From contig JAZDIN010000056.1 in NCBI GenBank assembly GCA_043804895.1, positions 1-11,926 on the forward strand: DNA of 11,926 nucleotides, read 5' to 3'. Positions 1 through 11,926 of this stretch are shown piece after piece. Numbering within the stretch: the first letter of the stretch is position 1; each line of letters begins with the position of its first letter. Source of the stretch: Candidatus Altiarchaeota archaeon (lineage in GTDB: Archaea; Altiarchaeota; Altiarchaeia; IMC4; SCGC-AAA252-I15). A program made the position numbers and the translations under genes. The notes under the pieces were generated by a model that saw only the letters and a list, made by a program, of their open reading frames with translations, was not told where the DNA came from and made no database searches.

Positions 1-1
1 C

Positions 2-133: not shown

Positions 134-224
134 GACCACAACCCCCTACACTAGTTTATTGGACTCACGAACATAAAAAGAAACGTAAGGTTAATAGGAT
201 ATATTGAGCGTATATCTATTGAAG

Positions 225-813
225 ATGACGGATGATGTAGGAGTGCTAAGATTTAATGCAAGTGATGAGCTTCCGCCTGACAAGGCCAGGTTCTACATTA
301 CACTACCCATAACTGTGAGGGCAGTTAAGGTGGATGCGCCATTCAGTGTGCAGACGATGGAGGGCGTATGCTCTGGCGGAAGTGGGGACTATCTTGTGGA
401 AGGCATCAGAGGAGAACTCTACCCCTGCAGTGCGGAGATATTTCAGGAGAGATACGGAAAGCAGGAGGATATAGGGTATTCCCCGAGAGTCAGGGCGTAA
501 TAGAACGAATGCCAGATAAGGCTAAGGAGTACACCAGACACCGTATCATGACAATGGCTGCGAAGATGGATAAGCCATTTGAGGTGACAGCGACCGACTC
601 CACTGGGCAGCCGTATTCGATGAAAGGTGCGGCTGGAGATTACCTCGTTTGCAATCCTAAAGGGAAACTGTACATAGTAAACCGCACATTTTCGACGAAA
701 CCCACACAGGTATCGTAAACCAGGATAAACCGTTGGAGAGGCTAGACCCAGCGACCATAGTTGTTCCGGATTTGATGCGACAGATAGCGGAAAAGCCCAG
801 AACACGCGTCTGA
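225..813 (+). pseudogene. Tandem PGDYG-like (TxEG...GDYxV...GExYP...IFxxxY) domain gene, apparently broken by frameshifts
   Basis: 225-500 encodes TMEGVCSGGSGDYLVEGIRGELYPCSAEIFQERY. The frame containing 509-718 encodes a second copy (MPDKAKEY...AAKMDKPFEV...GAAGDYLVCNPKGKLYIVNR). Its expected IFxETx motif (IFDETH) lies in a third frame from 688, open to TGA 811-813. Confidence 0.6.
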
Positions 814-818
814 GAGTG

Positions 819-986
819 TTATCTTTCAAGTACCGTATCGCGTATTCTCCCAACCACATACCAGAACGACAGAGCCACGACCGCGAATGCCACTATGCCA
901 AGCTGGCTTCTGATGTTAAGGTACGCCAGGTAGCCTAACACTAGCAGGACGAGAAGCCATAAGACGTAATAAACGAACCTGTTCAT
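819..986 (-). CDS. 55-aa membrane microprotein with two predicted TM helices
   Basis: MNRFVYYVLWLLVLLVLGYLAYLNIRSQLGIVAFAVVALSFWYVVGRIRDTVLER*. Two hydrophobic stretches; the start overlaps the upstream stop (ATGA, 983-986). Confidence 0.7.
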   Translation of the reverse strand: MNRFVYYVLWLLVLLVLGYLAYLNIRSQLGIVAFAVVALSFWYVVGRIRDTVLER

Positions 987-1084
987 CCCTTAGAAAGCCA
1001 CGCCCTCATGAGTTTCCGCTTCCGCCTCTTCTCCAACTTTGTTAAATCCGCGTCCTCATCGGACTCCTTCTTCCTTTCTCGCAT
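983..1084 (-). CDS. 33-aa highly charged microprotein
   Basis: MRERKKESDEDADLTKLEKRRKRKLMRAWLSKG*. AGGTGA SD at 1091-1096, 6 nt before the ATG. Fills the gap between its neighbours with an ATGA overlap. Confidence 0.6.
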   Translation of the reverse strand: MRERKKESDEDADLTKLEKRRKRKLMRAWLSKG

Positions 1085-1086
1085 AT

Positions 1087-2205
1087 TCAATCACCTGCCT
1101 TAATCTCAACCAAAATCGTCTCCCTGTTATCAGACCACGCCCGCACAGTGTCAGCAGCCTCGTTGCCAGCCAAGACTATGACCGTTTGGTCTTGAGCCCA
1201 ATGACCTTTCACAGTGAACATGACATCAGATCCTGGTGCCATAAGGGATTCCTTCGCACCAGCAGGTAACAACAGGCCGGAGACCGCCCCAACACCCTCA
1301 GGGGAGTTATGCCCCCCGAGTATTATTATGCGACGGTTGTACTTAAGTTTTTCAAAGCCGGGAGCGTCAGAGTACACGACGCCAACCCCGCTCGCCTTCA
1401 GGTATTCTACAAAACCGGAGGCCATCCCATAGTCTATGCTGTTGCCCAAAAGCACGACACCCCTCCCAGGACCGTAAGGTATGGACTTCAGCTGCGACCC
1501 TCGGGATGCGAGGCCAGATATTATCCTGTTGACCGTGTTACTTGACTCGCCTAACACCTGATAGTACTGGTTGTGCTCCATGCCTTGATTGCCATTGTCG
1601 AACTTGCACCGTTGACTCGAACTCCAGTCAGTAAGGCCATTGCTTATGGAACGATCTATGCTATCCTCGATGTTCCCAACACAGTCATTAGCCACGAGCC
1701 TGACCTGGTGGAGGGTACTTTCTGAATCCGCGTAGTATGAGGCTCCGACGCAGAAATAGTATATCCGCTCACAAAGGTTAGAGGCCCCCTCAGCAGCTTT
1801 GAACCATTTCTCCGATATGGAGTATGCGGGACGGTCCTGCGGGTCGCCGCAAACCCACTTCTCGCCGCCGCTTTTTATCGGGCAGTGGCTGAAGTCATAG
1901 TGGTTCCCCACATCACCGAAGACGTCGTATGATAGGAGGGAGGGATGAATCTCGGTTGCATTTGAAAGATGCATCTCGCACTTGGACTCATAATCTGCGC
2001 CCATAACACGGTAGGTCGTCTCACATACGCTTGAGAACGAACCTTTATCTGCCAAAGGAAGACACTCCGCCACCGCATCCACACCCCATGCGAACTTAAC
2101 AGCCTCATGGCAGATGAACTTGCTAGCTACCGGACCCCACGCGGAGCCGGAAGGGCAAAGGAGGAGCGTCACAAACAAAGCGGCAAGTAAGAGCTTGGAA
2201 TCCAT
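1087..2205 (-). CDS. Secreted protein: degenerate zinc PLC/P1-nuclease-like domain plus C-terminal S-layer-associated-type alpha/beta domain
   Basis: 372 aa; signal peptide ending GSA-W; GASYYADSESTLH resembles the PLC/P1 HYxxDxxxPxH motif; the C-terminal NSID...IIILGGHNSPEGVG...VIVLAG pattern resembles archaeal S-layer-associated domains. Recognised by eye only. Confidence 0.55.
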   Translation of the reverse strand: MDSKLLLAALFVTLLLCPSGSAWGPVASKFICHEAVKFAWGVDAVAECLPLADKGSFSSVCETTYRVMGADYESKCEMHLSNATEIHPSLLSYDVFGDVGNHYDFSHCPIKSGGEKWVCGDPQDRPAYSISEKWFKAAEGASNLCERIYYFCVGASYYADSESTLHQVRLVANDCVGNIEDSIDRSISNGLTDWSSSQRCKFDNGNQGMEHNQYYQVLGESSNTVNRIISGLASRGSQLKSIPYGPGRGVVLLGNSIDYGMASGFVEYLKASGVGVVYSDAPGFEKLKYNRRIIILGGHNSPEGVGAVSGLLLPAGAKESLMAPGSDVMFTVKGHWAQDQTVIVLAGNEAADTVRAWSDNRETILVEIKAGD

Positions 2206-2236
2206 GGTACAGAATAGGGTTAGGCCATTAAATACA

Positions 2237-2974
2237 CTACTCTATCCACTTATCCAACGTATGTTTCCTGCGCTCCAGCTTCAGTTTCCGCACGTTGAAT
2301 TTCCGGAATTCAAGACCCTCCTTCCTCAGGAGAGTTAACGCGTTAGGCGCGACAGCCGGCGCCATAAGTATGCCCCGCACACCCTGCTTCAAGTGTTCGG
2401 CAAGCCAGTCCCTGTAACGCTTCAACTGCAGGGCCGCCGGCAGGCCGGCAGTCACCGACTTCAACTCCACAACAGCATACGAGCCGCCAATCCTGCCGTA
2501 AAGGTCGAAGAACCCGAGGGGACTGTGGTATTCGACGCTCTTGAGCGTGAAGTCAGCGTCGACTTCGCCTGGGTGGGCTGCAAGCCAGTCCCTCATATCA
2601 CGCTCCGTGTGAGTTAAATCAAGTTTCTCCCGGTCTGATAGAGCCTCAAAGGAGTGGTAGCCGATGACACGCTCGATTGTTATCCTGATCTCCTCGAACG
2701 GCTTCACAGTCCTCTGGCTGAAGACAACAAGCCTACCCCCATCAACGCTGGCTGTAGTGTCACAGGGGGGGCTCATCCAATTCACAGGCTTAAAGCCTGA
2801 AGGCGAATGGACAATCAACGTCGAATCAGGCTTGAACAGGATTATCCTATCCCCTAACCCTATCACAGAACGGCTCCTGCCCCAGTACTCAATGCTGCAG
2901 GAGCATACAACCACTATAGTCTTAGAATCCCCTAAGTCGCCGAGAAAACGCTCCAGAAGCGGATCAGAATCCAT
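2237..2974 (-). CDS. nucS: Endonuclease NucS/EndoMS (mismatch-specific)
   Basis: 245 aa; YWGRSRS...GDRIILFKPDSTLIVH...KPVNW N-terminal domain; RecB-like D...VVELK...QLKRY catalytic motifs; GILMAP; PIP-box-like C-terminus KHTLDKWI. Confidence 0.95.
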   Translation of the reverse strand: MDSDPLLERFLGDLGDSKTIVVVCSCSIEYWGRSRSVIGLGDRIILFKPDSTLIVHSPSGFKPVNWMSPPCDTTASVDGGRLVVFSQRTVKPFEEIRITIERVIGYHSFEALSDREKLDLTHTERDMRDWLAAHPGEVDADFTLKSVEYHSPLGFFDLYGRIGGSYAVVELKSVTAGLPAALQLKRYRDWLAEHLKQGVRGILMAPAVAPNALTLLRKEGLEFRKFNVRKLKLERRKHTLDKWIE

Positions 2975-2988
2975 AAAGGAGTAAAGAT

Positions 2989-3016
2989 GAAAATAAAATA
3001 AAAAAGGAAAAGAAGG
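2989..3016 (-). terminator. Oligo-T archaeal terminator downstream of the histone gene
   Basis: A-rich tract on + (aaaataaaataaaaaaggaaaagaagg) reads as consecutive T-runs on -, about 10 nt after the histone stop. Confidence 0.55.
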
Positions 3017-3024
3017 ATAGGGAT

Positions 3025-3195
3025 TTAGAGGTCCCTAGCCTTGAGTGTGCTGCGGTTGTTGTCCTTACAGCGCTTCTTAGCCTTGTTGATTAAGACTTCA
3101 ACTTCGCCGTTGAGGGCGTCGTAAAATTCTGCTCCAACACTCATGTCCTTTCCAACGTATTCCTTTACCTTCGATTTAACAATCAAATCTGCCAT
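3025..3195 (-). CDS. Histone-fold protein, short-alpha3 type (DUF1931 / face-to-face histone family), 56 aa
   Basis: MADLIVKSKVKEYVGKDMSVGAEFYDALNGEVEVLINKAKKRCKDNNRSTLKARDL*. RxTLxxxDL end with R-D clamp and truncated alpha3; AGGTGA SD at 3201-3206; T-rich terminator. Below the ORF-track size cutoff. Confidence 0.92.
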   Translation of the reverse strand: MADLIVKSKVKEYVGKDMSVGAEFYDALNGEVEVLINKAKKRCKDNNRSTLKARDL

Positions 3196-3248
3196 TTCAT
3201 TCACCTATTTCCTCTTCGAAAAGAGATAATAAGTATATGTTAGGAACC

Positions 3249-3256
3249 TTTAAAAG
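3249..3256 (-). promoter_or_regulatory. Candidate TATA box of the histone gene
   Basis: CTTTTAAA on -, about 55 nt upstream of the ATG, compatible with a leadered, SD-containing mRNA. Confidence 0.4.
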
Positions 3257-3289
3257 CGTTCATTTAAGGCCTCCAGAGCATACGGCAGC

Positions 3290-4159
3290 CTAATCGCTCC
3301 TCGCGCCAGGGCCCTTGTCAACCTCCCCATATAGTGCCTTCACATCGAAACACAGCGAACCCTTACACGTCAAATAGACTGCACCGTCGGTTGAACACAA
3401 CTCACCATCATCACATACATATGAAGGCATCTTGAGCGCCCCCTTATAGCGGGAATCATAACAAACACCCTCAATGCAAGGATTAGTTGGCCCGCAGTAG
3501 TCTGAAACCCGGCTCATGACATGTTGCGTGCAGAAGGAACTGTACCTGCCATGGTTCCTGCACTCAAAGGTTACGTAATCCTGGTACACTGAACCTTCCC
3601 TACAGTACCCAGAACCCCACCGTGGGATGCCGCAACTAGCATTAGTGGTGCACTGTATGACACAAGCAGGACATGAGCCTCCACAGTCAACACCAACCTC
3701 ATCACCATCCCTCAGGCCGTTATTACATGAGACGCACAGCTGACATGGCCCCCCGCAGTCGACGCCAGACTCATTCTGGTTCCTAACGCCATCAGTACAT
3801 GAAGGCCCAGGATTGCACACCGACTTCCCTGGAACACAAACTTCATCAGGCATGCACCACTCAAAAACCTCACGCACAAGAGACCCAACGCACGTCGCAT
3901 TAGGGAGGCCTCGGTCGACGCAAGTATAGTTTATGTGGTCTTTCGCCACGAAATCCTTCCAGCAAACGTAGTCGGTCTCACCGCTTAAGCCGCAGTCCAA
4001 GTCGATGATACACGCCACAACAACAGAGGAAACATTAGTAGCGTTGTAGGAGGCTGCAGTAGACAGGTTAGACTCTTTAGGCAACTCCGCAACCCTCATG
4101 TTGTAGGCGACGAACACGACAACCAAGACGACACCAAGAGCCACAACATACTTCCACAT
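3290..4159 (-). CDS. Membrane-anchored cysteine-rich surface protein (289 aa)
   Basis: Start re-assigned to ATG 4159 (MWKYVVALGVVLVVVFVAY, TM anchor). Two tandem CxxGxRxxxExGVDCGGxCxxC repeats flanked by two copies of a C...C...C...xxxDxxxxxCxxxG...xxC...xxC.P...CxxG module. Confidence 0.85.
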   Translation of the reverse strand: MWKYVVALGVVLVVVFVAYNMRVAELPKESNLSTAASYNATNVSSVVVACIIDLDCGLSGETDYVCWKDFVAKDHINYTCVDRGLPNATCVGSLVREVFEWCMPDEVCVPGKSVCNPGPSCTDGVRNQNESGVDCGGPCQLCVSCNNGLRDGDEVGVDCGGSCPACVIQCTTNASCGIPRWGSGYCREGSVYQDYVTFECRNHGRYSSFCTQHVMSRVSDYCGPTNPCIEGVCYDSRYKGALKMPSYVCDDGELCSTDGAVYLTCKGSLCFDVKALYGEVDKGPGARSD

Positions 4160-4262
4160 ATGCTTTACTTCGGAAGGGAGACCATAAATACTCACAGGCT
4201 TCAGCCTGTGGTATTTATAAGAAAGCCACACGACCCATATTCATCCAATTTCGTTATAAATA

Positions 4263-4616
4263 CTACCTGGAGGCGCCAGCGACAGGCTTCAAAGAAGAAC
4301 AATCAGGTTTGCCAACAACGGAGGTTGACTCTAAAGGAGATTGTGCATTCAGGTACTCACTCCACCCGAGGGCAAAACGGAGCATGAGACCCTCACCCTC
4401 CAAAGGAACCCTCAAACCAGGCGAAATAAGCCTCTCCTGACCCTCCTCAGTAAGCTTCACCTCAACAACAACCCCGCCGCACGCATCATCCACAGGGTGC
4501 ACCAGGAGGCCGACAACACACCCCCTCCTCAACTCACCCCCCGCCCGAGCCGAATCAGTCAACTCCACAGGGATGCCCCGTATATAACTCAACCCGTCAA
4601 CTACAACCTCAAACAT
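4263..4616 (-). CDS. Hypothetical protein (117 aa)
   Basis: Non-overlapping 3' part of track ORF 4263-4937, from ATG 4616 (MFEVVVDGLSYIRGIPVELT...). Protein-like composition and co-oriented with the downstream gene; no family recognised. Confidence 0.4.
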   Translation of the reverse strand: MFEVVVDGLSYIRGIPVELTDSARAGGELRRGCVVGLLVHPVDDACGGVVVEVKLTEEGQERLISPGLRVPLEGEGLMLRFALGWSEYLNAQSPLESTSVVGKPDCSSLKPVAGASR

Positions 4617-4732
4617 TTCCAAACGCCCCCAAACAAAAAAACATCTTAAGTTATGGCCGAACCAGTATAAAAAGTCCCGACAAAACAGCAAGCTTATATT
4701 CACAAAAGCATCTACCAACAAGCCTGATGCAG

Positions 4733-4740
4733 TATAAATA
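4733..4740 (+). promoter_or_regulatory. TATA box, probable leaderless transcript of the nucleotidyltransferase operon
   Basis: TATAAATA ending 28 nt before ATG 4768; no SD in between. Confidence 0.5.
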
Positions 4741-4767
4741 ATTAAGCTCTCCCAATTACTAACACCG

Positions 4768-5349
4768 ATGAAATTCCTAAAGGACAGCGTCATTAAGGTC
4801 GATAGAGAGTTATCTGATTTGGACCGTTTCACATTAGATTTCATAAAAATACTGCGTAAACACACCACATATGTTATCGTCAGCGGATATGTTTCGATAC
4901 TGCTTGGCCGGGCACGCTCAAGCGAAGACGTAGACATAATCGTGCCAAGAATGGACTACGCCAGCTTTTCGAAGCTTGCGGACGATATAAAAGGCGGGGG
5001 CTTCTGGTGCCTGCAAGCTGAAAGGAACAGGAGTATATACGAGTACTTCCAGGACAGAATCGCAGTCAGGTTCGCGAAGAAGGATGCAGTGATACCCAAC
5101 ATAGAGCTTAAATGCGCTAAAAACAGGGCAGACGAAATCGCACTTGATGAGGCCATGACCGTCAAGCTGGACGGCGACGAACTCACCATATCCAATTTAG
5201 AACTGCAGGTCGCCTTCAAGGAGGCGGTCCTGAAGTCGCCGAAGGACATGGAAGACGCGAAACACATAAGGAACATAATGGGGGCCAAGTTAGACAAAGA
5301 TAGGGTTAGAGGGTATAGGAGGATACTTCATGGGATTTACAGAGGATAA
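4768..5349 (+). CDS. Pol-beta-superfamily nucleotidyltransferase (DUF6036/AbiEii-like)
   Basis: 193 aa; YVIVSGYVSILLGRARSSEDVDII matches the hhGGxA...RxTxDhDhh signature; C-terminal K...SPKDMEDA matches the K...RxKDxxD motif. Confidence 0.75.
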   Translation: MKFLKDSVIKVDRELSDLDRFTLDFIKILRKHTTYVIVSGYVSILLGRARSSEDVDIIVPRMDYASFSKLADDIKGGGFWCLQAERNRSIYEYFQDRIAVRFAKKDAVIPNIELKCAKNRADEIALDEAMTVKLDGDELTISNLELQVAFKEAVLKSPKDMEDAKHIRNIMGAKLDKDRVRGYRRILHGIYRG

Positions 5350-5506
5350 CAACAGGGAGAGGATGAAGTTCGTTGACTTATGGTCGAAATACGTGCTGGA
5401 ACATGACGACAAAAACTGGTCACGCCAACAGAACATAATCATTAACTCAAGCCTGAGAACCGCCCACATGACCAAAAAACAGTACCTGCAAATGATGAGA
5501 AAGTAG
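5330..5506 (+). CDS. 58-aa helical partner of the nucleotidyltransferase (putative antitoxin)
   Basis: MGFTEDNNRERMKFVDLWSKYVLEHDDKNWSRQQNIIINSSLRTAHMTKKQYLQMMRK*. AGGAGG SD upstream; 20-nt overlap with the NTase gene. Not in the ORF track. Confidence 0.8.
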   Translation: MGFTEDNNRERMKFVDLWSKYVLEHDDKNWSRQQNIIINSSLRTAHMTKKQYLQMMRK

Positions 5507-5557
5507 CCCCGCCAGGGATAACCGTCCCAGTTCTTATTCCTTACATATTATCTGATG

Positions 5558-5581
5558 AGGGTATATAAATCCATATACCCT
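5558..5581. promoter_or_regulatory. Palindromic operator overlapping the TATA box of the wHTH/RelE-like operon
   Basis: AGGGTATAT-aaatcc-ATATACCCT, a perfect 9-bp inverted repeat; TATATAAA at 5562-5569, ending 23 nt before ATG 5592. Confidence 0.7.
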
Positions 5582-5591
5582 ATAATTTTTC

Positions 5592-5855
5592 ATGGAAGTC
5601 ATCCACTACCCCCGGTTAGACACTGTTTTGAATGTTGAGGGATTCATCAAGTCAAACAGTGGCTCATACAAGAAGAAGGACCTCTGGAGCAGGCTGCCGA
5701 AGAAGATGATGTACCAGACATACTGCGTAATCTTCGATTATTTGGAAAAATCAGGGAAAATTGCCAGAGACAGCGAAGACAAGGTGGCGTGGATATGGGA
5801 CCCGGACGGTGTCAGAAAGTATCTGAGCAAGCCCCACCTTGAGTGGAAGGGATAA
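5592..5855 (+). CDS. Small winged-helix-like protein, putative antitoxin/autorepressor
   Basis: 87 aa; KKDLWSRLPKKMMYQTYCVIFDYLEKSGKI has an HTH-wing pattern (LxxxGxI); TAATG-coupled to the RelE-like gene. Confidence 0.7.
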   Translation: MEVIHYPRLDTVLNVEGFIKSNSGSYKKKDLWSRLPKKMMYQTYCVIFDYLEKSGKIARDSEDKVAWIWDPDGVRKYLSKPHLEWKG

Positions 5856-6190
5856 TGATGAAGTGCAGAGTATTCTTTGCTGACGAAAAAATCAGCGAAT
5901 CATATGAGTCACTCAAGGATTCCAAGACAGAAGACAGAAAACTGCATGAATGGATATCCCGCGCCCTAAAAGACATCAAAGAAGACTGTTTCTGCGGCAT
6001 CCAAATACCGAAGAAACAAATCCCCAAGGACTACATCCAAAAGTATCAGGCAGACAATCTGTGGAAGTATAACCTCCCCAACGCGTGGAGGCTAATCTAC
6101 ACAGTAAAGAGGGACGAAGTCGAAATAATCTCCATAGTCCTAGAATGGATGGACCACACACAATACAACAGAAAACTAGGATACAAGTAA
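5855..6190 (+). CDS. RelE/ParE-superfamily toxin-like protein (111 aa)
   Basis: Start at ATG 5855 overlapping the upstream TAA. LWKYNLPNAWRLIYTV...IVLEWMDHTQYNRKLGY fits the RelE-fold beta-strand / RhhY / C-terminal H...Y pattern. Confidence 0.7.
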   Translation: MMKCRVFFADEKISESYESLKDSKTEDRKLHEWISRALKDIKEDCFCGIQIPKKQIPKDYIQKYQADNLWKYNLPNAWRLIYTVKRDEVEIISIVLEWMDHTQYNRKLGYK

Positions 6191-6325
6191 GAACTCTCGT
6201 CCCGCCAGAAACCGAACAGACGTGGTTCGATTCCCCGAGCACATACAATTTTGTATGTACTTTTGAATAGGTATGGATTTCATAGATAACAGCCTTATTT
6301 GTTGTCCTCAGGAATTCGTGTACTT

Positions 6326-7552
6326 TTACTGTATTAACGTCCAAGTCTCCGTAGAAGTTGAAGTGCCGCACTGATAATCTCCATTATTAAGTTCAAGACA
6401 CATATTTCGGGTAGTGATGCGCTTTAGTGTTTTGCCATCAAAGGGGATGTCAGAAATCGTATAGGTTTTTTTCCAACCCTCCTCTGGAGTCGAATATTCG
6501 TCCATAATTGTCTTCCAATCTTTCTTTTCTTCAGCTAAAACTTTACAGTCCAATTTGACTTTAATATTGCTGATATCACAGTCCTTTCTCCAAGAATCGC
6601 AATCTTGGCTTTTGTATAAGTATTCGCCTGCAGGTATACCACAGGGGGAGATGGTCGTAGTCGCTTTTAATGTAGAGGTTGTTTTTTGTTGGATAGTGGC
6701 TGGTTGCGTGATGATGGTTCCGATAGACTCCAGATTCCTGGCGTTCTCCGCAGTCACCGGCTTATACCCGTTGGGGTCTGTTGCCGACACCTTAGGTAGG
6801 CCGTTCTTTTGTAAAACCTCGTTTATTGCCTCGATGAACATCGGGTCCTTGGAGATGGCTAAGAGATAGTCTTCGAGGTCGGTGGTGGTCGAAGGATTAT
6901 ACTCAAAATACAAGTCTATCGCAGCATACATCCTCTCAAGGCTCTTCGACTCCTCCTTCGGGTCACGCCAACAGAAGCCACCCTTCCCGCTAGGATGGTT
7001 TAGGCCTCCTGGACAATGCCAAGCAGCAGCGACAGTAGTAGTTCTATCTATCGCAAGTTCGATAGTGGCCTTACCAGCCGCCAAATCCGATGGGATGACA
7101 CTCATCAGAGGAGAACCATCAGGAGCCACGGCAGCGACAACAACAGGATAATCCGAATCCAACACCACCCGGTCAATACTGACAGTAAAATCCCCGTTCT
7201 TGTCCGTCGTAGTCGAAGCCCCCGGAACCTTCTCCCACCCATTCTTCCCCGGCCTCACAACAGCCACAGGGGCATTAGAAACACCCCTGCAGACAAACGG
7301 CTCACACGAAGGCCTACTTCGCGTAGACCAAGTACTAGCAACAGCCATGCCCGTCACCTTGGCTCCATCAGAGGATTTGGTGCCTGATGGAACACCGACA
7401 TGACCTTGGATAGTAACCTTATCATTCCCTCCCGCAGCACCAAAAATGCTAAATAATAATGCACCGCCAATCAAAGTGAAGAGAAGGATGAAGAAGACAA
7501 ACGCCGCAAGAAACACAATGACTATCGTCTTGATGGCAAGTTTATCCATCAC
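6326..7552 (-). CDS. Membrane-anchored hypothetical protein (408 aa)
   Basis: Long N-terminal hydrophobic helix; TTTDKNGDFTV (transthyretin-like beta-sandwich motif); Thr-rich linker; small Cys-containing C-terminal domain. Confidence 0.8.
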   Translation of the reverse strand: MMDKLAIKTIVIVFLAAFVFFILLFTLIGGALLFSIFGAAGGNDKVTIQGHVGVPSGTKSSDGAKVTGMAVASTWSTRSRPSCEPFVCRGVSNAPVAVVRPGKNGWEKVPGASTTTDKNGDFTVSIDRVVLDSDYPVVVAAVAPDGSPLMSVIPSDLAAGKATIELAIDRTTTVAAAWHCPGGLNHPSGKGGFCWRDPKEESKSLERMYAAIDLYFEYNPSTTTDLEDYLLAISKDPMFIEAINEVLQKNGLPKVSATDPNGYKPVTAENARNLESIGTIITQPATIQQKTTSTLKATTTISPCGIPAGEYLYKSQDCDSWRKDCDISNIKVKLDCKVLAEEKKDWKTIMDEYSTPEEGWKKTYTISDIPFDGKTLKRITTRNMCLELNNGDYQCGTSTSTETWTLIQ

Positions 7553-7621
7553 TTACATATTCGCCCACACTATTAAAGTGCAGCAACCCCATAAAGTGTA
7601 AGGGGTAGGAAGTGAAAACTT

Positions 7622-7785
7622 TAGCCCCGCCAGGATTCGAACCTGAGTTCCCCGGTTTCTCCGACACCATAACAAGGTGTTCACCTCCAGTGTTCTTTCT
7701 TTTGGGGTGAAGCACTTTTCTTTCTTCGCAAGAAAGAAAAGGGCTCGCCAAAGCCGGGTGTGATAGGCCACTACACTACGGGGCT
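7622..7785 (-). tRNA. tRNA-Gln(TTG) with a 91-nt intron (7657-7747) at canonical position 37/38
   Basis: AGCCCCG/CGGGGCT acceptor stem, CCCGG-CT-TTG-G^A-CCGGG anticodon arm, TCAGG-TTCGAAT-CCTGG T arm; 73 nt after splicing; no encoded CCA. BHB: CUUU/GGAG central helix with GG^C and AA^A bulges. Confidence 0.95.
7691..7747 (-). repeat. Hairpin element, copy in the tRNA-Gln intron (intron nt 1-57)
   Basis: CGAGCCCTTTTCTTTCTTGCGAAGAAAGAAAAGTGCTTCACCCCAAAAGAAAGAACA; 51 of 61 aligned columns identical to 7792-7852. Confidence 0.9.
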
Positions 7786-7791
7786 ATTTTA

Positions 7792-7852
7792 TGTTTCTTT
7801 CTTTTTGGGATGAAACACTTTTTCTTTCTTTTTAAGAAAGAAAAAGGGTTCG
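7792..7852 (-). repeat. Hairpin element, copy in the tRNA-Gly/tRNA-Gln spacer
   Basis: CGAACCCTTTTTCTTTCTTAAAAAGAAAGAAAAAGTGTTTCATCCCAAAAAGAAAGAAACA; starts at the second nt after the tRNA-Gly discriminator. Confidence 0.9.
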
Positions 7853-7853
7853 T

Positions 7854-7924
7854 TGCGTTCGCCGGGATTTGAACCCGGGTTTTTAGCTTGGAAGGCTAAA
7901 GTCCTACCACTAGACTACAAACGC
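7854..7924 (-). tRNA. tRNA-Gly(TCC), intronless, no encoded CCA
   Basis: GCGTTTG/CGAACGC acceptor stem, TTAGC-CT-TCC-AA-GCTAA anticodon arm, CCGGG-TTCAAAT-CCCGG T arm, discriminator A; 71 nt. Confidence 0.96.
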
Positions 7925-7974
7925 GATGTTTTAAGGGTTATGTTTAGGGGGGTTTTATTGATAGGGGGAGGGGG

Positions 7975-7981
7975 TTTATAT
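7975..7981 (-). promoter_or_regulatory. Candidate TATA box of the tRNA-Gly/tRNA-Gln transcript
   Basis: ATATAAA on -, about 50 nt upstream of tRNA-Gly. Confidence 0.45.
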
Positions 7982-7982
7982 G

Positions 7983-8270
7983 TTATTTTTTGGATAGTTT
8001 TTTGTTTATTTCTTCTAGTTCTTTTTTGATTTCGTCTGCTGTTTTGAGTTCTTTTTCTGTAGTGGTTTGTTGTTTGAGGGTTGTTAGGTGGGTTGTGGTT
8101 GGTATGCCTGCTTCTTGGAATATTTTGTCTAGTTTGTTTTCTGTGGTTGGGGGGAGTGGTTGTTCTTGGGGTGTTGTTGTGGTTTTTGTTTTTACGCTGG
8201 AGAGTAGTTCGTCTAGTTTTGTGGATGGGGTTTGTTCTGTTTGTGTTTCTTTGGTTGGGGGTTTTATGAT
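7983..8270 (-). other. In-frame 95-codon coding-like extension beyond the TAA of the 763-aa gene
   Basis: Same frame continues IIKPPTKETQ...KLDELLSSVK...KLDKIFQEAG...ADEIKKELEEINKKLSKK* to TAA 7983-7985; no ATG of its own. Confidence 0.7.
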
Positions 8271-10562
8271 TTATATTTGGGGGGGTTTTTCTTCCAGTAT
8301 TTTTGGGGGGAGGTTCGGGTAGTCCTCCTCTGGTTCTTCTTTTTTTGGTTTTGGTTTTTTGAATTTTTTTATGAGGAGGTATGCTGAGGCTGCTACTATG
8401 AGCGCTGCTACTGCCGCGGCTGCTGTGGGGAGTGTGTTATCTTGTTGTTTGGGGATGGTTTGTTGTTTGTTTTTTTGTTCTGCTTCTATTTCGAGTATTA
8501 GGTCGGTGGTTTGTAGGGCTGCGTCGGTTTGGTCTATTCCTCGGTATAGTTTGCGTGCTTTTTCCGCGTAGTCTTTGGCTGCTTCGTATTGTTGGTTTGT
8601 GTATAGTTCGTTGGCTTTGGCGTAGTGTTTTTGGGCTTCGACTCCGATTTCGCATAGTGTGATGAGGTTCCTTGCTTTTGTTTCCCCTTGGGTGTCTGTG
8701 GCGTTAGCGTAGAGGGTTTGTGAGGTGGTTGCGTCTTCGATGCATCCGGGGTAGTTTGTTGTGTTTAATTTTGAGTTGGCTCTGTCGTAGTATTCGTCGC
8801 CCTTTGCCTTGTGTTCTATTTTTTCTATCTCGCGGTTTATTTTGGAGATGATGCTTTCTATTGAGGTTACGCGGCTTTTGTCGCCGACTTTTTCGTATGA
8901 GTTCTTTGCTTGTTGGGCTGCTGTTGCTGCTTGGTTGTAGTTTTGTTTTTCATATTGTCTTATTGCTTCCTCGTAGTTTTTGTTTGCTTTAGGGTATTCT
9001 TCGGTGTTGTTGAACAGTTTTTCTGCCTTGTTGATGTTGGTTGTGTCTTTGAGTTGGAGGTATATGTCTAGGGCTTTTTTGCTGTATACAATGCCTTCCA
9101 GGTAGTTTTCTGATCGGTAGTATCCGAGTGCCCTTTGGTAGAAGTATTCGGCGTCTATTTGGTCTATGGCTTTGTTGACGAGTGTTAGGGCTTGGTTTGT
9201 GCGGTTTTCGTCTTTGATTTTTGAGTATAATTTCTCTGCTTCAATGGCTTTTTCCTTTGATGTTTGGTAGTCGCCGCTGGTGTAGGCTTCTTGGGCTTCT
9301 TTGTATAGTGCGGCTGCTGTGACTTGTAGGACTGAGGATTCGTTTATTTTGAGGGCGTTCTCTTTTGATGTGGTGTCGTTTAGTTGGGAGTATAGTTCGT
9401 ATGCGAGTTCGGCGTGTTGTTGGGCTTTTTCGAATGAGTTGTTCGCTAGGTATTCGGTTGATTTTTTGAGGTTGTATTGGGCTTTGAGGTTGTTCAGGTA
9501 GTCGGCGTTTATTTTGTAGGTTGTGATTTGCCTTGCGCCGAGGATTACGAGGTTTTCGTTCGTTTCCTGTAGTTGCCCTGTTTTCATATCAACGATGGGG
9601 TAGGTGGTTTCGTATGTCCATTTGAGTTTTCCTGTGTAGTCTAGTGCGTATATGGTCTTGGATGAGGCGATCATCACCTCACCGTAGCCGTCTGCGTCGA
9701 TGTCTGCTGCAGTTACGATGGGCTTTACGGCTAGTAGATGGTATTCCCACAGCTTGTTTCCGCCGGCTGAAATAGCGAAGATTGTGTCGTTTTCAGTGAT
9801 TGCTAGGGCTTCCTTCTGCCCATCGTTATTTATGTCCGCGGCATACACTGCCGTTACCTGGCCCCCGGTGTCGAAACGCCATATCCTGTTGCCGAGGTTG
9901 TTTGTGACGTGCAGGTATTTGTAGGACCCGGCGAGTATTTCTGATGTTCCGTCTCCGTTCAGGTCTGCAGCGTATACTGCGTTGACTGAGCCTTCTGTCT
10001 CGTACTTCCATCTTAGTGTGCCGTCTGAGTTTATGGTGTAGACTATGCCTTCGCGTGCACCGGATATGACCTCCTTTTGTTTGTCACCGTTTATGTCAGC
10101 GACGTAGATGGAGATTGAAAGGCCGTAGCCTAGGTGGCGCCATTTGAGCATGTTGTCTTGGAGGAGGGGGTTGCGTTCCAGGACGAATATTGGTTGGTTG
10201 TATTCGGATAAGCCTGCGGCGCATGTTTTGGCTTCTATCACTGAGCCTACTACGATGTCTGTGTTGTTGTTGGCGTCTATGTCGTCCACGGTAACGGTGT
10301 GTGGGGTGTTGTTAGGCCATATGACCGATATCTTGTTCCTCCATTGTAGTATTCCGTTGTTGTCGAGGAGGTAGACGTAGCTTCCTTCGTTTTTGAAGAA
10401 ACCTATCATGATATCCAGTCTTCCGTCGCCGTCTACGTCTCTTATGTCTAGTCTGTCGCCTCCGAGGTTTATGACCCATACTTCTCTTAGTATGGGGTAC
10501 GTGGCAGCGTTAACCAGTCCTGCGGCTAGTAGGAGTGTTAGCGTGATTCTGATGGCGTTCAT
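8271..10562 (-). CDS. Type I membrane protein: FG-GAP/VCBS-PQQ beta-propeller + TPR-like repeats + C-terminal TM
   Basis: Signal peptide; repeated ADxxxDGxxE and GxxxWxY/F motifs; AxxxYxxAxxxYxxxxY helical repeats; TM AAAAVAALIVAASAYLLI followed by KKFKKPK. Confidence 0.9.
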   Translation of the reverse strand: MNAIRITLTLLLAAGLVNAATYPILREVWVINLGGDRLDIRDVDGDGRLDIMIGFFKNEGSYVYLLDNNGILQWRNKISVIWPNNTPHTVTVDDIDANNNTDIVVGSVIEAKTCAAGLSEYNQPIFVLERNPLLQDNMLKWRHLGYGLSISIYVADINGDKQKEVISGAREGIVYTINSDGTLRWKYETEGSVNAVYAADLNGDGTSEILAGSYKYLHVTNNLGNRIWRFDTGGQVTAVYAADINNDGQKEALAITENDTIFAISAGGNKLWEYHLLAVKPIVTAADIDADGYGEVMIASSKTIYALDYTGKLKWTYETTYPIVDMKTGQLQETNENLVILGARQITTYKINADYLNNLKAQYNLKKSTEYLANNSFEKAQQHAELAYELYSQLNDTTSKENALKINESSVLQVTAAALYKEAQEAYTSGDYQTSKEKAIEAEKLYSKIKDENRTNQALTLVNKAIDQIDAEYFYQRALGYYRSENYLEGIVYSKKALDIYLQLKDTTNINKAEKLFNNTEEYPKANKNYEEAIRQYEKQNYNQAATAAQQAKNSYEKVGDKSRVTSIESIISKINREIEKIEHKAKGDEYYDRANSKLNTTNYPGCIEDATTSQTLYANATDTQGETKARNLITLCEIGVEAQKHYAKANELYTNQQYEAAKDYAEKARKLYRGIDQTDAALQTTDLILEIEAEQKNKQQTIPKQQDNTLPTAAAAVAALIVAASAYLLIKKFKKPKPKKEEPEEDYPNLPPKILEEKPPQI

Positions 10563-10585
10563 TGTTAAATAGTGGCTGGTGAACC

Positions 10586-10593
10586 TTATATAT
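10586..10593 (-). promoter_or_regulatory. TATA box of the beta-propeller/TPR gene (probably leaderless) in a divergent intergenic region
   Basis: ATATATAA on -, 24 nt before ATG 10562. Confidence 0.5.
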
Positions 10594-10653
10594 GCCCCCC
10601 GGGGGTGGGGCTTAGGAGTAGTATTATACCTGGTTTCCTATTGTTTTTAGCAT

Positions 10654-11316
10654 ATGAGGACATTGATTGTTATGCCAGCGTACAACGAGTCCCTCGTGCT
10701 CGCTGAGACGTTGAAGGGCCTGCAGGCATGCACGGAAGCTACCATCCTTGTCGTGGATGATGGAAGCTCTGACAGAACTAGCAAGATAGCCGCTAGATGC
10801 CATGTTAGGGTAGTCAGGCATATGATTAACCTGGGTTTAGGGGCTGCCATAGGGACTGGAGTGGAGGTTGCAAGGAGGGAGGGTTTCAACAGGCTTGTCA
10901 CGTTCGACGCTGACGGACAACATAACCCTGAGGATGTGAAAAAACTCCTGAAGGCGCTTGATAGCAGTGATGTCGCTGTTGGTGTGAGGGAAGTCCACAC
11001 AGACAGGATGCCACTTGTGAAGAAAATCGGGAATTACGCCCTGAACATCCTAACTTTAGCATTATTCGGAGTCTACTCAAGGGACAGTCAAAGCGGCCTC
11101 AGAGCCTTCAACAGGAAGGCTATCGAATCTATGAAACTTAGGGCTAGCAGGTACGAGGTGTCCTCTGAGATACTCTATGAGGCTAAGCGCAGCGGCCTTA
11201 GGTTGAGTGAGGTTCCTGTTGAGGTCATATACACTAAGCACTCCAAAAGCAGGGGGACTGGGGTGTTGGACGGTTTTAAGATAGTGTGGCATATGGTATT
11301 ACACAGAGGCATGTGA
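10654..11316 (+). CDS. Glycosyltransferase family 2 (DPM1-like)
   Basis: IVMPAYNE, VVDDGSSDRT, NLGLGAA, TFDADGQH and DSQSGLRAF motifs. Confidence 0.95.
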   Translation: MRTLIVMPAYNESLVLAETLKGLQACTEATILVVDDGSSDRTSKIAARCHVRVVRHMINLGLGAAIGTGVEVARREGFNRLVTFDADGQHNPEDVKKLLKALDSSDVAVGVREVHTDRMPLVKKIGNYALNILTLALFGVYSRDSQSGLRAFNRKAIESMKLRASRYEVSSEILYEAKRSGLRLSEVPVEVIYTKHSKSRGTGVLDGFKIVWHMVLHRGM

Positions 11317-11317
11317 G

Positions 11318-11656
11318 ATGATAATAGAGGTTCTTGGGCTTGTATTCTCCGCTTTCGCGTTAAGTAGGGTTTTTTTAAGGTTCAGGGAGGGTAAACTCAG
11401 CTGGAGTATGCTGCTCCTGTGGAGCGTGGCATGGCTTACGGTGATAGCTTTCCTGCTTTCTCCAAGCACATTCGAGCCTGTCTCCAAGGTCATTGGGATA
11501 CAACGGCCGCTGGATTTGATGCTTGTGGGGGGGGTTATTCTGTCTTATTATCTAACGTTCAGGATTTACGTCTTCCTTGAGGAGCTGCGCTCTGACGTCG
11601 CGGAGGTTGTGAGGGAAATCAGCCTGAGGAAAGAGAGGAAGCCTAAAAAAGCGTAG
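11318..11656 (+). CDS. DUF2304-family membrane protein
   Basis: 112 aa, three TM segments, GIQRPLDL motif, C-terminal coiled segment (LRSDVAEVVREISL); typical position directly after a DPM1-like GT2. Confidence 0.85.
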   Translation: MIIEVLGLVFSAFALSRVFLRFREGKLSWSMLLLWSVAWLTVIAFLLSPSTFEPVSKVIGIQRPLDLMLVGGVILSYYLTFRIYVFLEELRSDVAEVVREISLRKERKPKKA

Positions 11657-11710
11657 GGCTGAGTGTAGCTTTCTAGACTTCATATACTCTGATTGGTTTA
11701 CTCATACCGT

Positions 11711-11926
11711 TTACGCTAGGCTTGAGCACTCGCCTGTCAATCTTTCTATTCCTTCGAACCGCTTGTTCAGTAGGTTGTATTCTAGGTTGTCGTACTGGAA
11801 TGTTACAGTGTAGGAGTATCCTCCACCAGCTGAACAGTTGAAAGGCATACCACCTTCCCATCTGATGGATTTACCTGGCAGGAGCGTCTCACCAACAGTA
11901 TAGGTGGTCACGCCACTGTCTATTGA
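11711..11926 (-). CDS. C-terminal fragment of a hypothetical beta-rich, probably extracellular protein
   Basis: Frame is open to the window edge (SIDSGVTTYTVG...YSYTVTFQYDN...LTGECSSLA*); convergent with the DUF2304 gene. Confidence 0.65.
   Translation of the reverse strand, partial: SIDSGVTTYTVGETLLPGKSIRWEGGMPFNCSAGGGYSYTVTFQYDNLEYNLLNKRFEGIERLTGECSSLA

Follow-up and report, generated by a model that had tools for sequence, protein, structure and literature searches.

A triplex-type hairpin repeat in tRNA introns of Altiarchaeota

The genes for tRNA-Gly(TCC) and tRNA-Gln(TTG) lie next to each other on the minus strand of contig JAZDIN010000056.1 (positions 1 to 11,926; hereafter referred to as the window, the whole 11,926-nt stretch analysed), from a 1.58-Mb Candidatus Altiarchaeota archaeon genome (GCA_043804895.1; hereafter G000). 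The tRNA-Gly gene is intronless, whereas the tRNA-Gln gene is interrupted by an intron, and the 5′ part of this intron and the spacer behind tRNA-Gly carry two copies of one folded element of about 60 nt. Here we report that these copies belong to a repeat family found across the Altiarchaeota genomes sampled, and that the family has the layout of an intrastrand triplex motif.

Organization of the locus

The features of the locus are listed in Table 1. The position of the splice site is fixed independently by intronless tRNA-Gln orthologs. In G001 and G003, two other genomes of the same genus, the matches to window positions 7785–7748 and 7656–7621 are contiguous, and ARAGORN calls these genes, and that of G004 (same genus), intronless. 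Thus, the intron spans 91 nt and the element copy begins at intron nucleotide 1, whereas the trailer copy begins at +2 relative to the tRNA-Gly discriminator. ARAGORN misreads the tRNA-Gln of the window as 'Stop tta' with the intron shifted by 2 nt; the orthologs show the anticodon TTG and the loop CTTTGGA.

Table 1 Features of the tRNA-Gly–tRNA-Gln locus (window positions)
Position	Strand	Feature	Basis
7854..7924	-	tRNA-Gly(TCC), intronless here; discriminator A at 7854	ARAGORN; Rfam RF00005 at 73.9 bits
7787..7853	-	67-nt spacer between tRNA-Gly and tRNA-Gln, serving as Gly 3′ trailer and Gln 5′ leader; the element copy at 7852-7792 fills nearly all of it	Sequence; covariance model R1 hit 7787-7855 at 62.9 bits, E 4.8e-11
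7834..7846	-	Trailer copy: pyrimidine 5′ arm (C, T5, C, T3, C, T2)	Pairs with 7830-7818 as a 13-bp stem in the MFE fold
7818..7830	-	Trailer copy: purine 3′ arm (A2, G, A3, G, A5, G); loop AAA at 7833-7831	MFE fold; run-length table
7794..7806	-	Trailer copy: second purine tract (A5, G, A3, G, A3), a mirror of the 3′ arm and the candidate third strand	Run code [5,3,3] against 5′ arm [5,3,2]; family statistics
7748..7785	-	tRNA-Gln(TTG) 5′ exon, ending at G37	Contiguous exon matches in the intronless orthologs of G001 and G003; loop reading
7657..7747	-	91-nt intron at 37/38	Orthologs; bulge-helix-bulge check; fold of the whole precursor at -68 kcal/mol, z -4.05
7691..7747	-	Intron copy of the element (intron nt 1-57)	Model R1 hit 7684-7750 at 74.7 bits, E 9.5e-14
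7730..7741	-	Intron copy: pyrimidine 5′ arm (C, T4, C, T3, C, T2)	12-bp stem with 7726-7715
7715..7726	-	Intron copy: purine 3′ arm; loop GCG at 7729-7727	MFE fold
7693..7703	-	Intron copy: second purine tract (A4, G, A3, G, A2), run code identical to the 5′ arm	Run code [4,3,2] against [4,3,2]; in the MFE fold 7702-7693 lie in the 13-nt loop (7702-7690) of a second hairpin, 7710-7703 with 7689-7681, and 7703 is its innermost pair
7659..7662	-	GGAG: 3′ strand of the 4-bp central helix of the splice motif, pairing with C32-U35 (7753-7750); bulges G36, G37 | C (7749, 7748 | 7747) and A, A | A38 (7658, 7657 | 7656)	Read from the sequence; motif script gives H 4/4 and h′ 2 bp
7622..7656	-	tRNA-Gln 3′ exon, from A38 to discriminator A at 7622	Sequence; orthologs

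The original prediction held that the two copies align at 51 of 61 columns, with differences that respect a hairpin, and that one copy starts at the 5′ splice site and the other at the second nucleotide after the discriminator. This observation is confirmed, and every number that we checked is correct. A global alignment of 7747–7691 against 7852–7792 (minus strand) gives 61 columns with 51 identities, 6 mismatches and 4 gaps, and its score of 39 compares with a mean of -7.0 (sd 4.4, max 12) for 2000 shuffles of the trailer copy. The 12-bp core stem of the intron copy and the 13-bp stem of the trailer copy fold with z-scores of -3.0 and -5.3, respectively. Pairwise blastn-short of the two copies alone is weak (E 0.22), because the sequence is of low complexity.

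A repeat family at tRNA processing sites

To examine whether the two copies are a one-off, which had been named beforehand as a refuting outcome, we searched the genome and its relatives. G000 contains at least 19 non-overlapping copies. Eight of them form the 5′ part of 77–134-nt introns at position 37/38, five are trailers beginning 2–3 nt after a tRNA discriminator, one follows a 20-nt tRNA-Val 5′ fragment, one abuts a tRNA 3′ half, and four lie elsewhere. The covariance model R1 matches 38 of 41 genomes of the order at E<=0.01, 48 of 61 genomes of the phylum sample at E<=1e-5, and 0 of 3 Thermococcus-labelled control genomes. Up to 41 strong matches occur per genome, and hundreds of copies occur across the 48 genomes. 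A one-off local duplication, or a chance resemblance of low-complexity sequence, is thereby refuted, also in view of the shuffle test and the covariation described below.

In another genome, G014, we found 25 copies: 13 at intron 5′ ends, 5 trailers, 2 upstream of a tRNA and 5 elsewhere. By contrast, only 3 of 12 copies touch a tRNA in genome G026, and in family f7 most copies are intergenic. Copies also lie next to protein genes and the 5S rRNA. The tRNA preference is thus lineage-dependent. Within tRNA spans or the first 70 nt of trailer, 55 copies are on the strand of the tRNA and 1 is on the opposite strand.

The element matches no Rfam family at the gathering score. In the window, only tRNA-Gly matched, and in seven loci searched at E<=0.1 the matches were tRNA, 5S rRNA and two below-threshold chance hits. 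We found no description of the repeat in print: no paper was found that treats tRNA introns together with Altiarchaeota, and none on triple helices and tRNA introns appeared relevant as judged from titles and abstract openings, although the supplementary tables of a MITE survey (PMC11602168) may list this repeat among its computed MITEs.

The hairpin and a mirrored second purine tract

The hairpin covaries strongly. Over 91 distinct copies, 95.0% of cells are paired, against 85.0% in shuffles (0 of 500 reach the observed value), changes on both sides occur in 14 of 16 pairs, and slid controls give 59–78%, although the alignment used for the pair counts was fitted to the model. The G-C to A-U pair pointed out in the original prediction is the best-covarying pair of the whole family (AU 41, GC 39, other standard pairs 3, unpaired 8).

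Furthermore, the analysis revealed a third part, missed in the original prediction. Two of the four alignment gaps and one mismatch between the copies lie in a purine tract that follows the hairpin and mirrors its purine arm, run for run. Of the 91 distinct copies, 90 parse into the order of pyrimidine arm, purine arm and second purine tract on one strand. The first run-length of this tract equals that of the 5′ arm in 82 of 90 copies (shuffled mean 29.9, max 45). Of 75 asymmetric copies, 55 fit only the mirror, 0 fit only a direct copy and 20 fit neither, and in the parallel register 874 of 902 positions match as T-A-A and C-G-G triads, against a shuffled mean of 670.9 and max of 709. The copies are related and the shuffle tests therefore overstate independence, although about 17 distinct run-length variants all keep the three-way match. 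In this parse, loop 1 is 0–5 nt and loop 2 is 3–13 nt; the commonest subtype has a loop 2 of 11–12 nt, which is outside the limits of the published searches for such motifs (1–6 nt in ITxF and 0–10 nt in the earlier PIT search). This pyrimidine–purine–purine order, with the third domain in the orientation of a reverse-Hoogsteen strand, is the layout of a class II intrastrand (purine-motif) triplex, whose formation here is inferred from covariation only.

We also considered that the second purine tract may serve as an alternative Watson–Crick partner of the pyrimidine arm, acting as a switch, and rejected this reading because 0 of the 75 informative copies fit a direct copy. In many introns, the second purine tract sits in the loop of a second, covarying hairpin (mean best stem 5.85, against a permuted mean of 5.38 and max of 5.65).

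Turnover of copies among loci and genomes

Comparison of orthologous tRNA-Gln loci showed that the intron comes and goes within one genus: the gene is intronless in G001, G003 and G004, and has a 61-nt degenerate-element intron in G002 and the 91-nt intron in G000. tRNA-Gln is also intronless in genome G030. G019 and G020, which belong to one genus, carry different element subtypes in the Gln intron. A 110-nt composite is identical at 107 of 110 positions between the Thr-GGT intron and the Ile trailer, the Thr-TGT and Leu-TAG introns match at 52/54, and the Gly-trailer copy of the window is 57/57 identical to part of a tRNA-Glu intron in another genus. The nearest neighbours of G000 copies are non-orthologous copies in other genomes. 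In G019, a tRNA-Arg has a 'trailer' that is a second intron-like unit followed by a second 3′ exon. By eye, the intron tail of tRNA-Gln seemed to be a degenerate duplicate of the 5′ exon end, but this was not seen in tRNA-Phe and we dropped the idea on inspection alone.

No mobilizing enzyme was found. A search of G000 for Y1 transposase, TnpB-type, tyrosine integrase and RVT_1 domains (PF01797, PF07282, PF00589 and PF00078), which left out GIY-YIG and DDE families, returned no match, which is weak evidence of absence in an 88.68%-complete, 71-contig assembly. Duplications flanking the copies are about 17, 20, 38, 45 and 70 nt long and diverged, with no demonstrated mechanism, and no fixed target duplication is seen, so that insertion as such is not demonstrated. 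We therefore consider it unlikely that the element is a classical MITE mobilized in trans by a transposase encoded elsewhere in the population or on a virus. In favour of this possibility, G026 holds near-identical intergenic copies, strong matches are numerous in some genomes, and Candidatus Altiarchaeum hamiconexum is stated to have the highest density of computed MITEs among archaea, 146 per Mb (PMC11602168). However, the inverted repeat is internal, as the arms of the hairpin, and not terminal. One exact subtype pattern gave 0 matches in viral contigs, a result that covers that subtype only and is not evidence of absence.

The splice motif and the trailers

We next examined whether introns carrying the element could be excised. 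All 33 sampled element-introns, in tRNAs with 16 different anticodons covering 15 amino acids, are 59–158 nt long and lie at 37/38 within a bulge-helix-bulge motif. The central helix has at least 3 of 4 pairs in 33 of 33, and the outer helix has at least 2 bp in 26 of 33; the script picks the best register within ±5 nt of the ARAGORN call, which favours finding the motif. In the window, C32–U35 pair with GGAG, both bulges are 3 nt and the outer helix is 2 bp. G000 encodes one EndA splicing endonuclease homolog of 183 aa (PF01974, E 3e-32). No RNA run was found to contain the window (7400–8100 queried), and splicing, trimming and any released RNA are therefore inferred.

All trailers that we read show the acceptor stem, then 3 nt, then the hairpin, and the canonical cut after the second bulge nucleotide would leave one extra base after the discriminator, a base that is not consistently C. 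On this reasoning we rejected cutting by EndA at a 'half' bulge-helix-bulge.

A role as a transcription terminator or intergenic punctuation element, in which T-runs within a hairpin end transcripts after tRNAs and open reading frames, also appears very unlikely. The trailer copies of Gly-TCC, Leu-GAG and Leu-TAG begin with T5–T6, and in G026 a same-strand open frame ends within about 10 nt of the element start in 4 of 9 intergenic copies, although with 250-nt flanks the open-frame test is ambiguous and we make no claim beyond these four cases. However, 34 sampled copies lie inside introns, where termination would destroy the tRNA, and T5 runs occur in 6 of these 34 against 8 of 18 trailers, a weak trend that does not separate the two contexts. 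In our reading, the Gly–Gln spacer shows no promoter-like box for tRNA-Gln, so read-through seems required. The bacterial PIT elements showed no terminator activity (PMC4666352).

Interpretation

Taken together, our findings suggest, with moderate confidence, that the element is one unit of a short structured repeat whose parts run in a fixed order on one strand: a GARCC head, an all-pyrimidine arm, a short loop, the complementary all-purine arm, a 3–13-nt linker and a second purine tract that mirrors the first. Our analysis establishes the conservation of the hairpin by compensatory change, the position-by-position tracking of the stem by the second purine tract, the sense-oriented placement of copies at the 5′ end of tRNA introns and 2–3 nt behind discriminators, the occupation of non-homologous sites by identical or near-identical copies, and the gain-or-loss states of the Gln intron within a genus. 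The remainder of the model is inference. In this view, the repeat has no enzyme of its own, spreads and is reshuffled by recombination among copies and by local duplication, for example of an intron-plus-3′-exon unit, and survives where the transcript is trimmed. In tRNA-Gln, the head nucleotides follow the 5′ bulge and would help form the outer helix of the bulge-helix-bulge motif, the variable intron tail would supply the four bases that pair with the anticodon loop, and EndA could then excise the intron. Behind tRNA-Gly, the copy would be removed by ordinary 3′-end and 5′-end processing. The triplex, if it forms, most likely forms in single-stranded DNA of the sense strand, where it would favour the rearrangements seen around copies.

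The original interpretation, that the element is a small non-autonomous one inserting at tRNA processing sites where it is removed harmlessly, or a small RNA released in two ways, or the record of an intron gaining sequence from a trailer, is partly supported. A multi-copy, non-coding family concentrated at tRNA processing sites (in G000, 13 of 19 copies in introns or trailers and 2 more abutting tRNA fragments), further covariation, presence or absence of the intron within a genus and the lack of a described family all hold, and exchange between introns and trailers gains support from the Thr–Ile composite and the G019 tRNA-Arg. By contrast, insertion and a mobilizer are not supported, and a released small RNA remains conjecture.

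A host-selected RNA module, either a processing, chaperone-binding or stability signal in pre-tRNA or a source of functional small RNAs made from many loci as excised introns and cut-out spacers, is a less likely alternative. The near-strict sense orientation, conservation across the class, the 57/57-identical copy in another genus, the concentration of mutations in loops while stems are kept, and the second covarying hairpin would fit such a function. However, the element is dispensable at a given locus, subtypes are swapped at orthologous sites, copies occur beside protein genes, and the three-way covariation points to a purine-motif triplex, which according to PMC4666352 does not form in RNA.

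A more far-reaching possibility, which we regard as tentative, is that a self-folding triplex-type repeat is the vehicle of tRNA intron gain in Altiarchaeota. On the single-stranded sense DNA of highly transcribed stable-RNA genes, it would fold into a hairpin-plus-third-strand structure provoking breaks, template switches and unequal exchange between copies, and these events would drop the repeat, with duplicated gene fragments, into tRNA genes and their flanks. Copies landing at 37/38 would survive because their head and an adapted tail complete a bulge-helix-bulge motif. Trailers and introns would then be interconvertible states of one element, with no transposase, integrase or reverse transcriptase involved.

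How archaeal tRNA introns arrive is still called an open question. Here, a whole class of uncultured archaea shows introns whose bulk is an interspersed repeat that also lies in trailers and intergenic DNA, with gain-or-loss states within one genus and intermediate forms such as exon-fragment duplications and a gene with two intron-plus-3′-exon units, making intron birth and turnover directly testable by comparative genomics and simple biochemistry. The element also extends intrastrand-triplex repeats, known from bacteria with no assigned function, to archaea, and gives them a defined, oriented genomic niche and three-strand covariation across about 90 natural variants, which is rare evidence for such a structure. 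For annotation, the Rfam tRNA model and ARAGORN both missed genes, in addition to the miscalled tRNA-Gln, and tRNA counts in Altiarchaeota genomes are therefore likely too low.

Comparison with known systems

The closest known systems are the class II intrastrand triplex repeats of bacteria, the BoxC/PIT/TMECO elements (Holder et al. 2015, PMC4666352). These share the order of pyrimidine domain, loop, purine domain, loop and second purine (reverse-Hoogsteen) domain on one strand; both are multi-copy, interspersed and non-coding, with loops less conserved than stems, both are linked to locally rearranged DNA, and neither has a known enzyme or function. However, the archaeal element is A/T-rich (T and A runs broken by single C and G, giving T-A-A triads with a few C-G-G), whereas TMECO has a G/C-rich consensus, and it is not a member of that sequence family, with which it has no sequence homology. 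Its stems are longer (11–14 positions against 9), its second loop is 3–13 nt against 3 nt in TMECO, and it has an extra 4-bp outer stem and the GARCC head. It lies inside tRNA introns and directly behind tRNA 3′ ends in a fixed orientation, whereas the PIT elements were reported to show no significant correlation with the orientation or function of neighbouring genes.

The transposed tRNA intron groups of Thermoproteales (Fujishima et al. 2010, cited in PMC4033280) reportedly comprise introns more than 70% similar in tRNAs of different identity, must fit a bulge-helix-bulge motif at the new site, and are read as late intron gain. The Altiarchaeota introns likewise recur in tRNAs of different identity, but the phylum differs, and they are long, all at the canonical 37/38 site in the sample and not short at varied non-canonical positions, and built around a repeat that also occurs in trailers, intergenic DNA and the 5S neighbourhood. 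As in the canonical archaeal bulge-helix-bulge intron, the position is 37/38, with a 4-bp central helix, two 3-nt bulges and a predicted cut after the second bulge nucleotide, and an EndA homolog is present, but most of the intron is a shared repeat unit whose head contributes to the outer helix.

Like MITEs and REP-type interspersed hairpin repeats, the element is short, non-coding, multi-copy and hairpin-forming, and varies in copy number between relatives, but it has no terminal inverted repeats, no fixed target duplication and no partner transposase found, and it has a three-part triplex-type design. As in H-DNA-forming homopurine/homopyrimidine mirror repeats, two purine tracts in mirror symmetry are separated by a short spacer. 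H-DNA needs only the duplex mirror repeat, whereas here a third, pyrimidine tract on the same strand makes the motif self-contained in a single strand.

Organization of the tRNA-Gly–tRNA-Gln locus

The tRNA-Gly(TCC) gene, a spacer and tRNA-Gln(TTG) follow one another on the minus strand of the window, with tRNA-Gln split into two exons by an intron. The intron borders do not rest on a tRNA finder. In two genomes of the same genus (G001 and G003) the matches to the two exons are contiguous, and ARAGORN calls those genes, and the gene of a third genome of the genus (G004), intronless tRNA-Gln(TTG). By contrast, ARAGORN calls the tRNA-Gln of the window tRNA-Stop (tta), and the Rfam tRNA model misses it. 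As Rfam lists 19 tRNA matches and ARAGORN 26 in the genome containing the window (hereafter G000), tRNA counts for such genomes are likely too low. In the intronless tRNA-Gln of G001 (locus L059), the anticodon loop reads CATTGGA, so that position 33 is A in place of the near-universal U, which may reflect a sequencing error or a decaying gene. Just upstream of tRNA-Gly, a 286-nt stretch is 84% A+C on the minus strand (A 152, C 89, G 21, T 24), and lies at or beyond the 3′ end of the ORF for a 763-aa FG-GAP repeat protein.

The original prediction held that one structured element of about 60 nt occurs both in the tRNA-Gln intron and behind tRNA-Gly, and this observation proved exact. The alignment of the two copies has 61 columns, with 51 identities, 6 mismatches and 4 gaps, and its score is 39, against a maximum of 12 in 2000 shuffles. 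The 12-bp and 13-bp stems fold as described. One copy starts at intron nucleotide 1, and the other at the second nucleotide after the tRNA-Gly discriminator.

Coordinates of the features described in the text (C, contigs; L, extracted loci; G014, a genome of a different genus; G019, a genome sharing its genus with G020; G026, a complete genome of another family)
Feature	Genome or locus	Position	Strand	Length
tRNA-Gly(TCC)	window	7924-7854	minus	
Spacer between tRNA-Gly and tRNA-Gln	window		minus	67 nt
tRNA-Gln(TTG) 5′ exon	window	7785-7748	minus	
tRNA-Gln(TTG) intron	window	7747-7657	minus	91 nt
GGAG, pairing with C32-U35	window	7662-7659	minus	
tRNA-Gln(TTG) 3′ exon	window	7656-7622	minus	
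tRNA-Gln gene miscalled by ARAGORN and missed by Rfam	window	7621-7786		
A+C-rich stretch	window	7985-8270	minus	286 nt
Second repeat module	G000	C4:79491-79542, C33:5171-5220, C48:12200-12218, C30:753-786, C4:123108-123147, C25:96620-96659, C4:54197-54223		about 50 nt
Third module	G000	C2:23410-23443, C24:28735-28756, C25:40290-40318; also the Pro-GGG and Ala-GGC trailers and after 5S rRNA (C30)		
Second copy of tRNA 3′ end	G000	C15:31335-31540, C47:21170-21339, C33:4979-5140, C40:800-1001		
Second copy of tRNA 3′ end, tRNA-Gly	G001 (L059), G003 (L065)			
tRNA-Arg(TCG) with two intron-plus-3′-exon units	G019 (L105)	C120:2200-2800	minus	
Copies flanked by duplicated gene starts	G000; L084 (G014); L095 and L097 (G026)	C32:2860-3060 (G000)		
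Copies followed by a promoter-like stretch	L092, L098, L099, L100, L102 (G026)			
Two copies with identical flanks	G000	C17:25071-25133, C20:55767-55829		

A repeat family concentrated at tRNA genes

Searches with blastn-short and iterated nhmmer identified 19 non-overlapping copies in G000 (1.58 Mb, 71 contigs, 88.68% complete), and their contexts were read from ARAGORN with introns allowed and from the sequences. Eight copies form the 5′ part of 77–134-nt introns, in tRNA-Gln, Phe, Met, Thr-GGT, Thr-TGT, Glu, Asn and Leu-TAG. Five begin 2–3 nt after a discriminator, behind Gly-TCC, Leu-GAG, Leu-TAG, a tRNA-Ser followed by tRNA-Ala, and tRNA-Ile. One follows a 20-nt 5′ fragment of tRNA-Val, and one abuts a tRNA 3′ half on the other strand at a contig end. 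Of the four that lie elsewhere, one sits between two diverged copies of the first 38 nt of a GH57-like gene, one is near the 5S rRNA gene, and two are of unknown context. The copies on C17 and C20 share identical sequence beyond the element, and one of them is at a contig end, so they may be one locus assembled twice. Because tRNA genes make up well under 1% of the genome, the distribution of the 19 copies is a strong concentration.

A covariance model (R1) built from 15 copies matches 38 of 41 genomes of the order at E ≤ 0.01, and 48 of 61 genomes of the phylum sample at E ≤ 1e-5, including 6 of 12 outside the order, whereas it matches none of three Thermococcus-labelled genomes. Among the best loci from twelve genomes, eleven carry a tRNA at or next to the copy. 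In G014, 25 copies split into 13 intron 5′ ends, 5 trailers, 2 upstream of a tRNA and 5 elsewhere. By contrast, only 3 of 12 copies in G026 touch a tRNA, and the rest are near-identical intergenic copies beside protein genes. Near-identical copies in this genome are followed by a conserved promoter-like stretch and, within about 15–25 nt, a start codon, an arrangement that looks like a repeat-plus-promoter cassette. The tRNA preference is therefore strong in the window's family but not universal.

The element occurs alongside two further modules in G000. The second module forms two G+C-rich hairpins joined by a CACACAC-type linker. It is inserted inside the element in the Thr-GGT intron and the Ile trailer, and it also occurs in the Leu-TAG, Ala-GGC and Gly-GCC trailers and near the 5S gene. 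The third module is a 7-bp hairpin that also begins with GAGCC, 2–3 nt after the discriminator, and is followed by a conserved GCGAAGG-type tail; it seems to be the default trailer of tRNAs that lack the element, and of the 5S rRNA.

Hairpin and downstream purine tract

We aligned 93 copies to the model. In the hairpin, 95.0% of cells are paired, against 85.0% after shuffling (0 of 500 shuffles reach the observed value) and 59–78% when the partner is slid, although the alignment was fitted to the model, which favours the structure. Fourteen of 16 pairs show changes on both sides, and the covarying pair singled out in the original prediction is split AU 41 to GC 39. In the inner stem, changes are almost entirely U-A to C-G and back, so that the 5′ arm stays pyrimidine and the 3′ arm stays purine.

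A further feature, absent from the original prediction, is the purine tract that follows the hairpin. We wrote each tract as run-lengths (T-runs split by C, or A-runs split by G), and in this code the downstream tract equals the 5′ arm in the same 5′-to-3′ order. The first run is equal in 82 of 90 parsed copies (shuffled mean 29.9, maximum 45). Among 75 asymmetric copies, 55 fit only a mirror of the 3′ arm, none fit only a direct copy and 20 fit neither. In register, 874 of 902 positions match, against a shuffled mean of 670.9 and a maximum of 709, and about 17 distinct run-length variants, including rare ones such as 5-1-4 and 6-4, keep the three-way match. This explains two of the four gaps in the pairwise alignment, as the extra T-A pair in the trailer copy has its counterpart, an extra A, in the third tract.

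A mirror repeat cannot be made by templated copying, and it is not what an alternative Watson–Crick pairing would need, whereas it is what a reverse-Hoogsteen third strand needs. The pyrimidine–purine–purine order on one strand is the class II intrastrand triplex layout described for the bacterial BoxC/PIT/TMECO repeats (PMC4666352). That study states that purine-motif triplexes form in single-stranded DNA but not in RNA, and notes that the complementary strand carries the matching pyrimidine motif. We therefore treat the triplex as inferred, and as more likely a property of single-stranded sense DNA than of the transcript.

Fit to the bulge-helix-bulge splicing motif

In tRNA-Gln, C32-U35 pair with GGAG, the bulges are G36, G37 | C and A, A | A38, and intron nucleotides 2–3 pair with the two bases before GGAG. 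A script applied to all 33 sampled introns that begin with the element, which picks the best register within ±5 nt of the ARAGORN call, places every one at 37/38. The central helix has at least 3 of 4 pairs in all 33, and the outer helix has at least 2 bp in 26. In many introns the conserved head (GARCC) pairs with a distal GGTTY just before the anticodon-complementary bases, and the last 4–6 bases of the intron differ with the anticodon loop of the host tRNA. In many intron copies the linker pairs with sequence beyond the third tract, so that the tract sits in a hairpin loop; this helix covaries, but the overall signal is modest. The genome encodes one EndA homolog of 183 aa. This is the size of the homotetrameric type, which is not known to accept other than canonical motifs, in agreement with all the introns being at 37/38.

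Turnover of copies

Within the window's genus, tRNA-Gln is intronless in three genomes, has a 61-nt intron with a degenerate element in one, and has the 91-nt intron in G000, whereas other genera of the family have 80–144-nt element-introns. G019 and G020, two genomes of one genus, carry different subtypes in the Gln intron. tRNA-Gly has an element-intron in G014, G019 and another genome (G009), but not in G000.

Closely similar copies occupy different sites. In G000, a 110-nt composite (the element with another hairpin module inserted) is 107/110 identical between the Thr-GGT intron and the Ile trailer, and the Thr-TGT and Leu-TAG introns match at 52/54, differing only in the loop. The Gly-trailer copy of the window is 57/57 identical to part of a tRNA-Glu intron in another genus. 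The nearest relatives of G000 copies are non-orthologous copies in other genomes; for example, the Gln-intron copy is closest to a tRNA-Arg intron of G019, at 0.96.

Copies are often flanked by diverged direct duplications of the neighbouring gene's start or end, of about 17 to 70 nt. Those next to protein genes, including a GH57-like gene and an ahcY-like gene, duplicate the first 17–70 nt of the gene, and the upstream fragment keeps its start codon. Several tRNAs (Val-GAC, Val-TAC, Ile and Ser-GGA) are followed, after about 65 nt, by a second copy of their last 16–20 nt, which is preceded by the T-stem 5′ strand and a conserved ATAAG-hairpin-CGG insert. tRNA-Gly of G001 and G003 has the same two-copy arrangement with a differently worded insert. 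Where the element is present it follows the second copy, and this insert is present or absent within the genus. The tRNA-Arg(TCG) locus of G019 has a 5′ gene fragment plus an element upstream, then an element-intron, a 3′ exon, a second element with a splice-competent tail, and a second identical 35-nt 3′ exon, which amounts to two alternative intron-plus-3′-exon units. This arrangement shows how a 'trailer' copy and an 'intron' copy can be two states of one thing.

Interpretation and relation to known elements

No Y1 transposase, TnpB-type domain, tyrosine integrase or reverse transcriptase was found in the 88.68%-complete assembly of G000. In the best-supported account, the element is a self-folding interspersed repeat, without an enzyme of its own, that is moved and reshuffled by recombination and local duplication, and that persists where RNA processing removes it. 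The original prediction, which had proposed a small non-autonomous element inserting at tRNA processing sites, a small RNA released in two ways, or an intron gaining sequence from a trailer, is supported only in part. The multiplicity of copies, the covariation and the three-way match are shown by the sequences, whereas triplex formation, splicing, removal by processing and the mode of spread are inferred, and no RNA data could be found. The main rival is a host function at the RNA level, which the 55:1 sense orientation and the deep conservation keep alive. Transcription-terminator and classical-MITE readings fit less well.

The element matches no Rfam family. In the literature searched, no paper links Altiarchaeota with tRNA introns, the few papers considered that mention both Altiarchaeota and introns are on other topics, judging by titles or passages, and none of those mentioning both triple helices and tRNA introns looked relevant from its title and the start of its abstract. 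As far as we could check, the combination is new, namely, a triplex-type repeat that forms the body of canonical tRNA introns and of trailers across a class of archaea. The known systems that it touches are the intrastrand triplex repeats of bacteria (PMC4666352), the similar introns shared among different tRNAs in Thermoproteales (PMC4033280, citing Fujishima 2010), and the computed high MITE density in Candidatus Altiarchaeum hamiconexum (PMC11602168).
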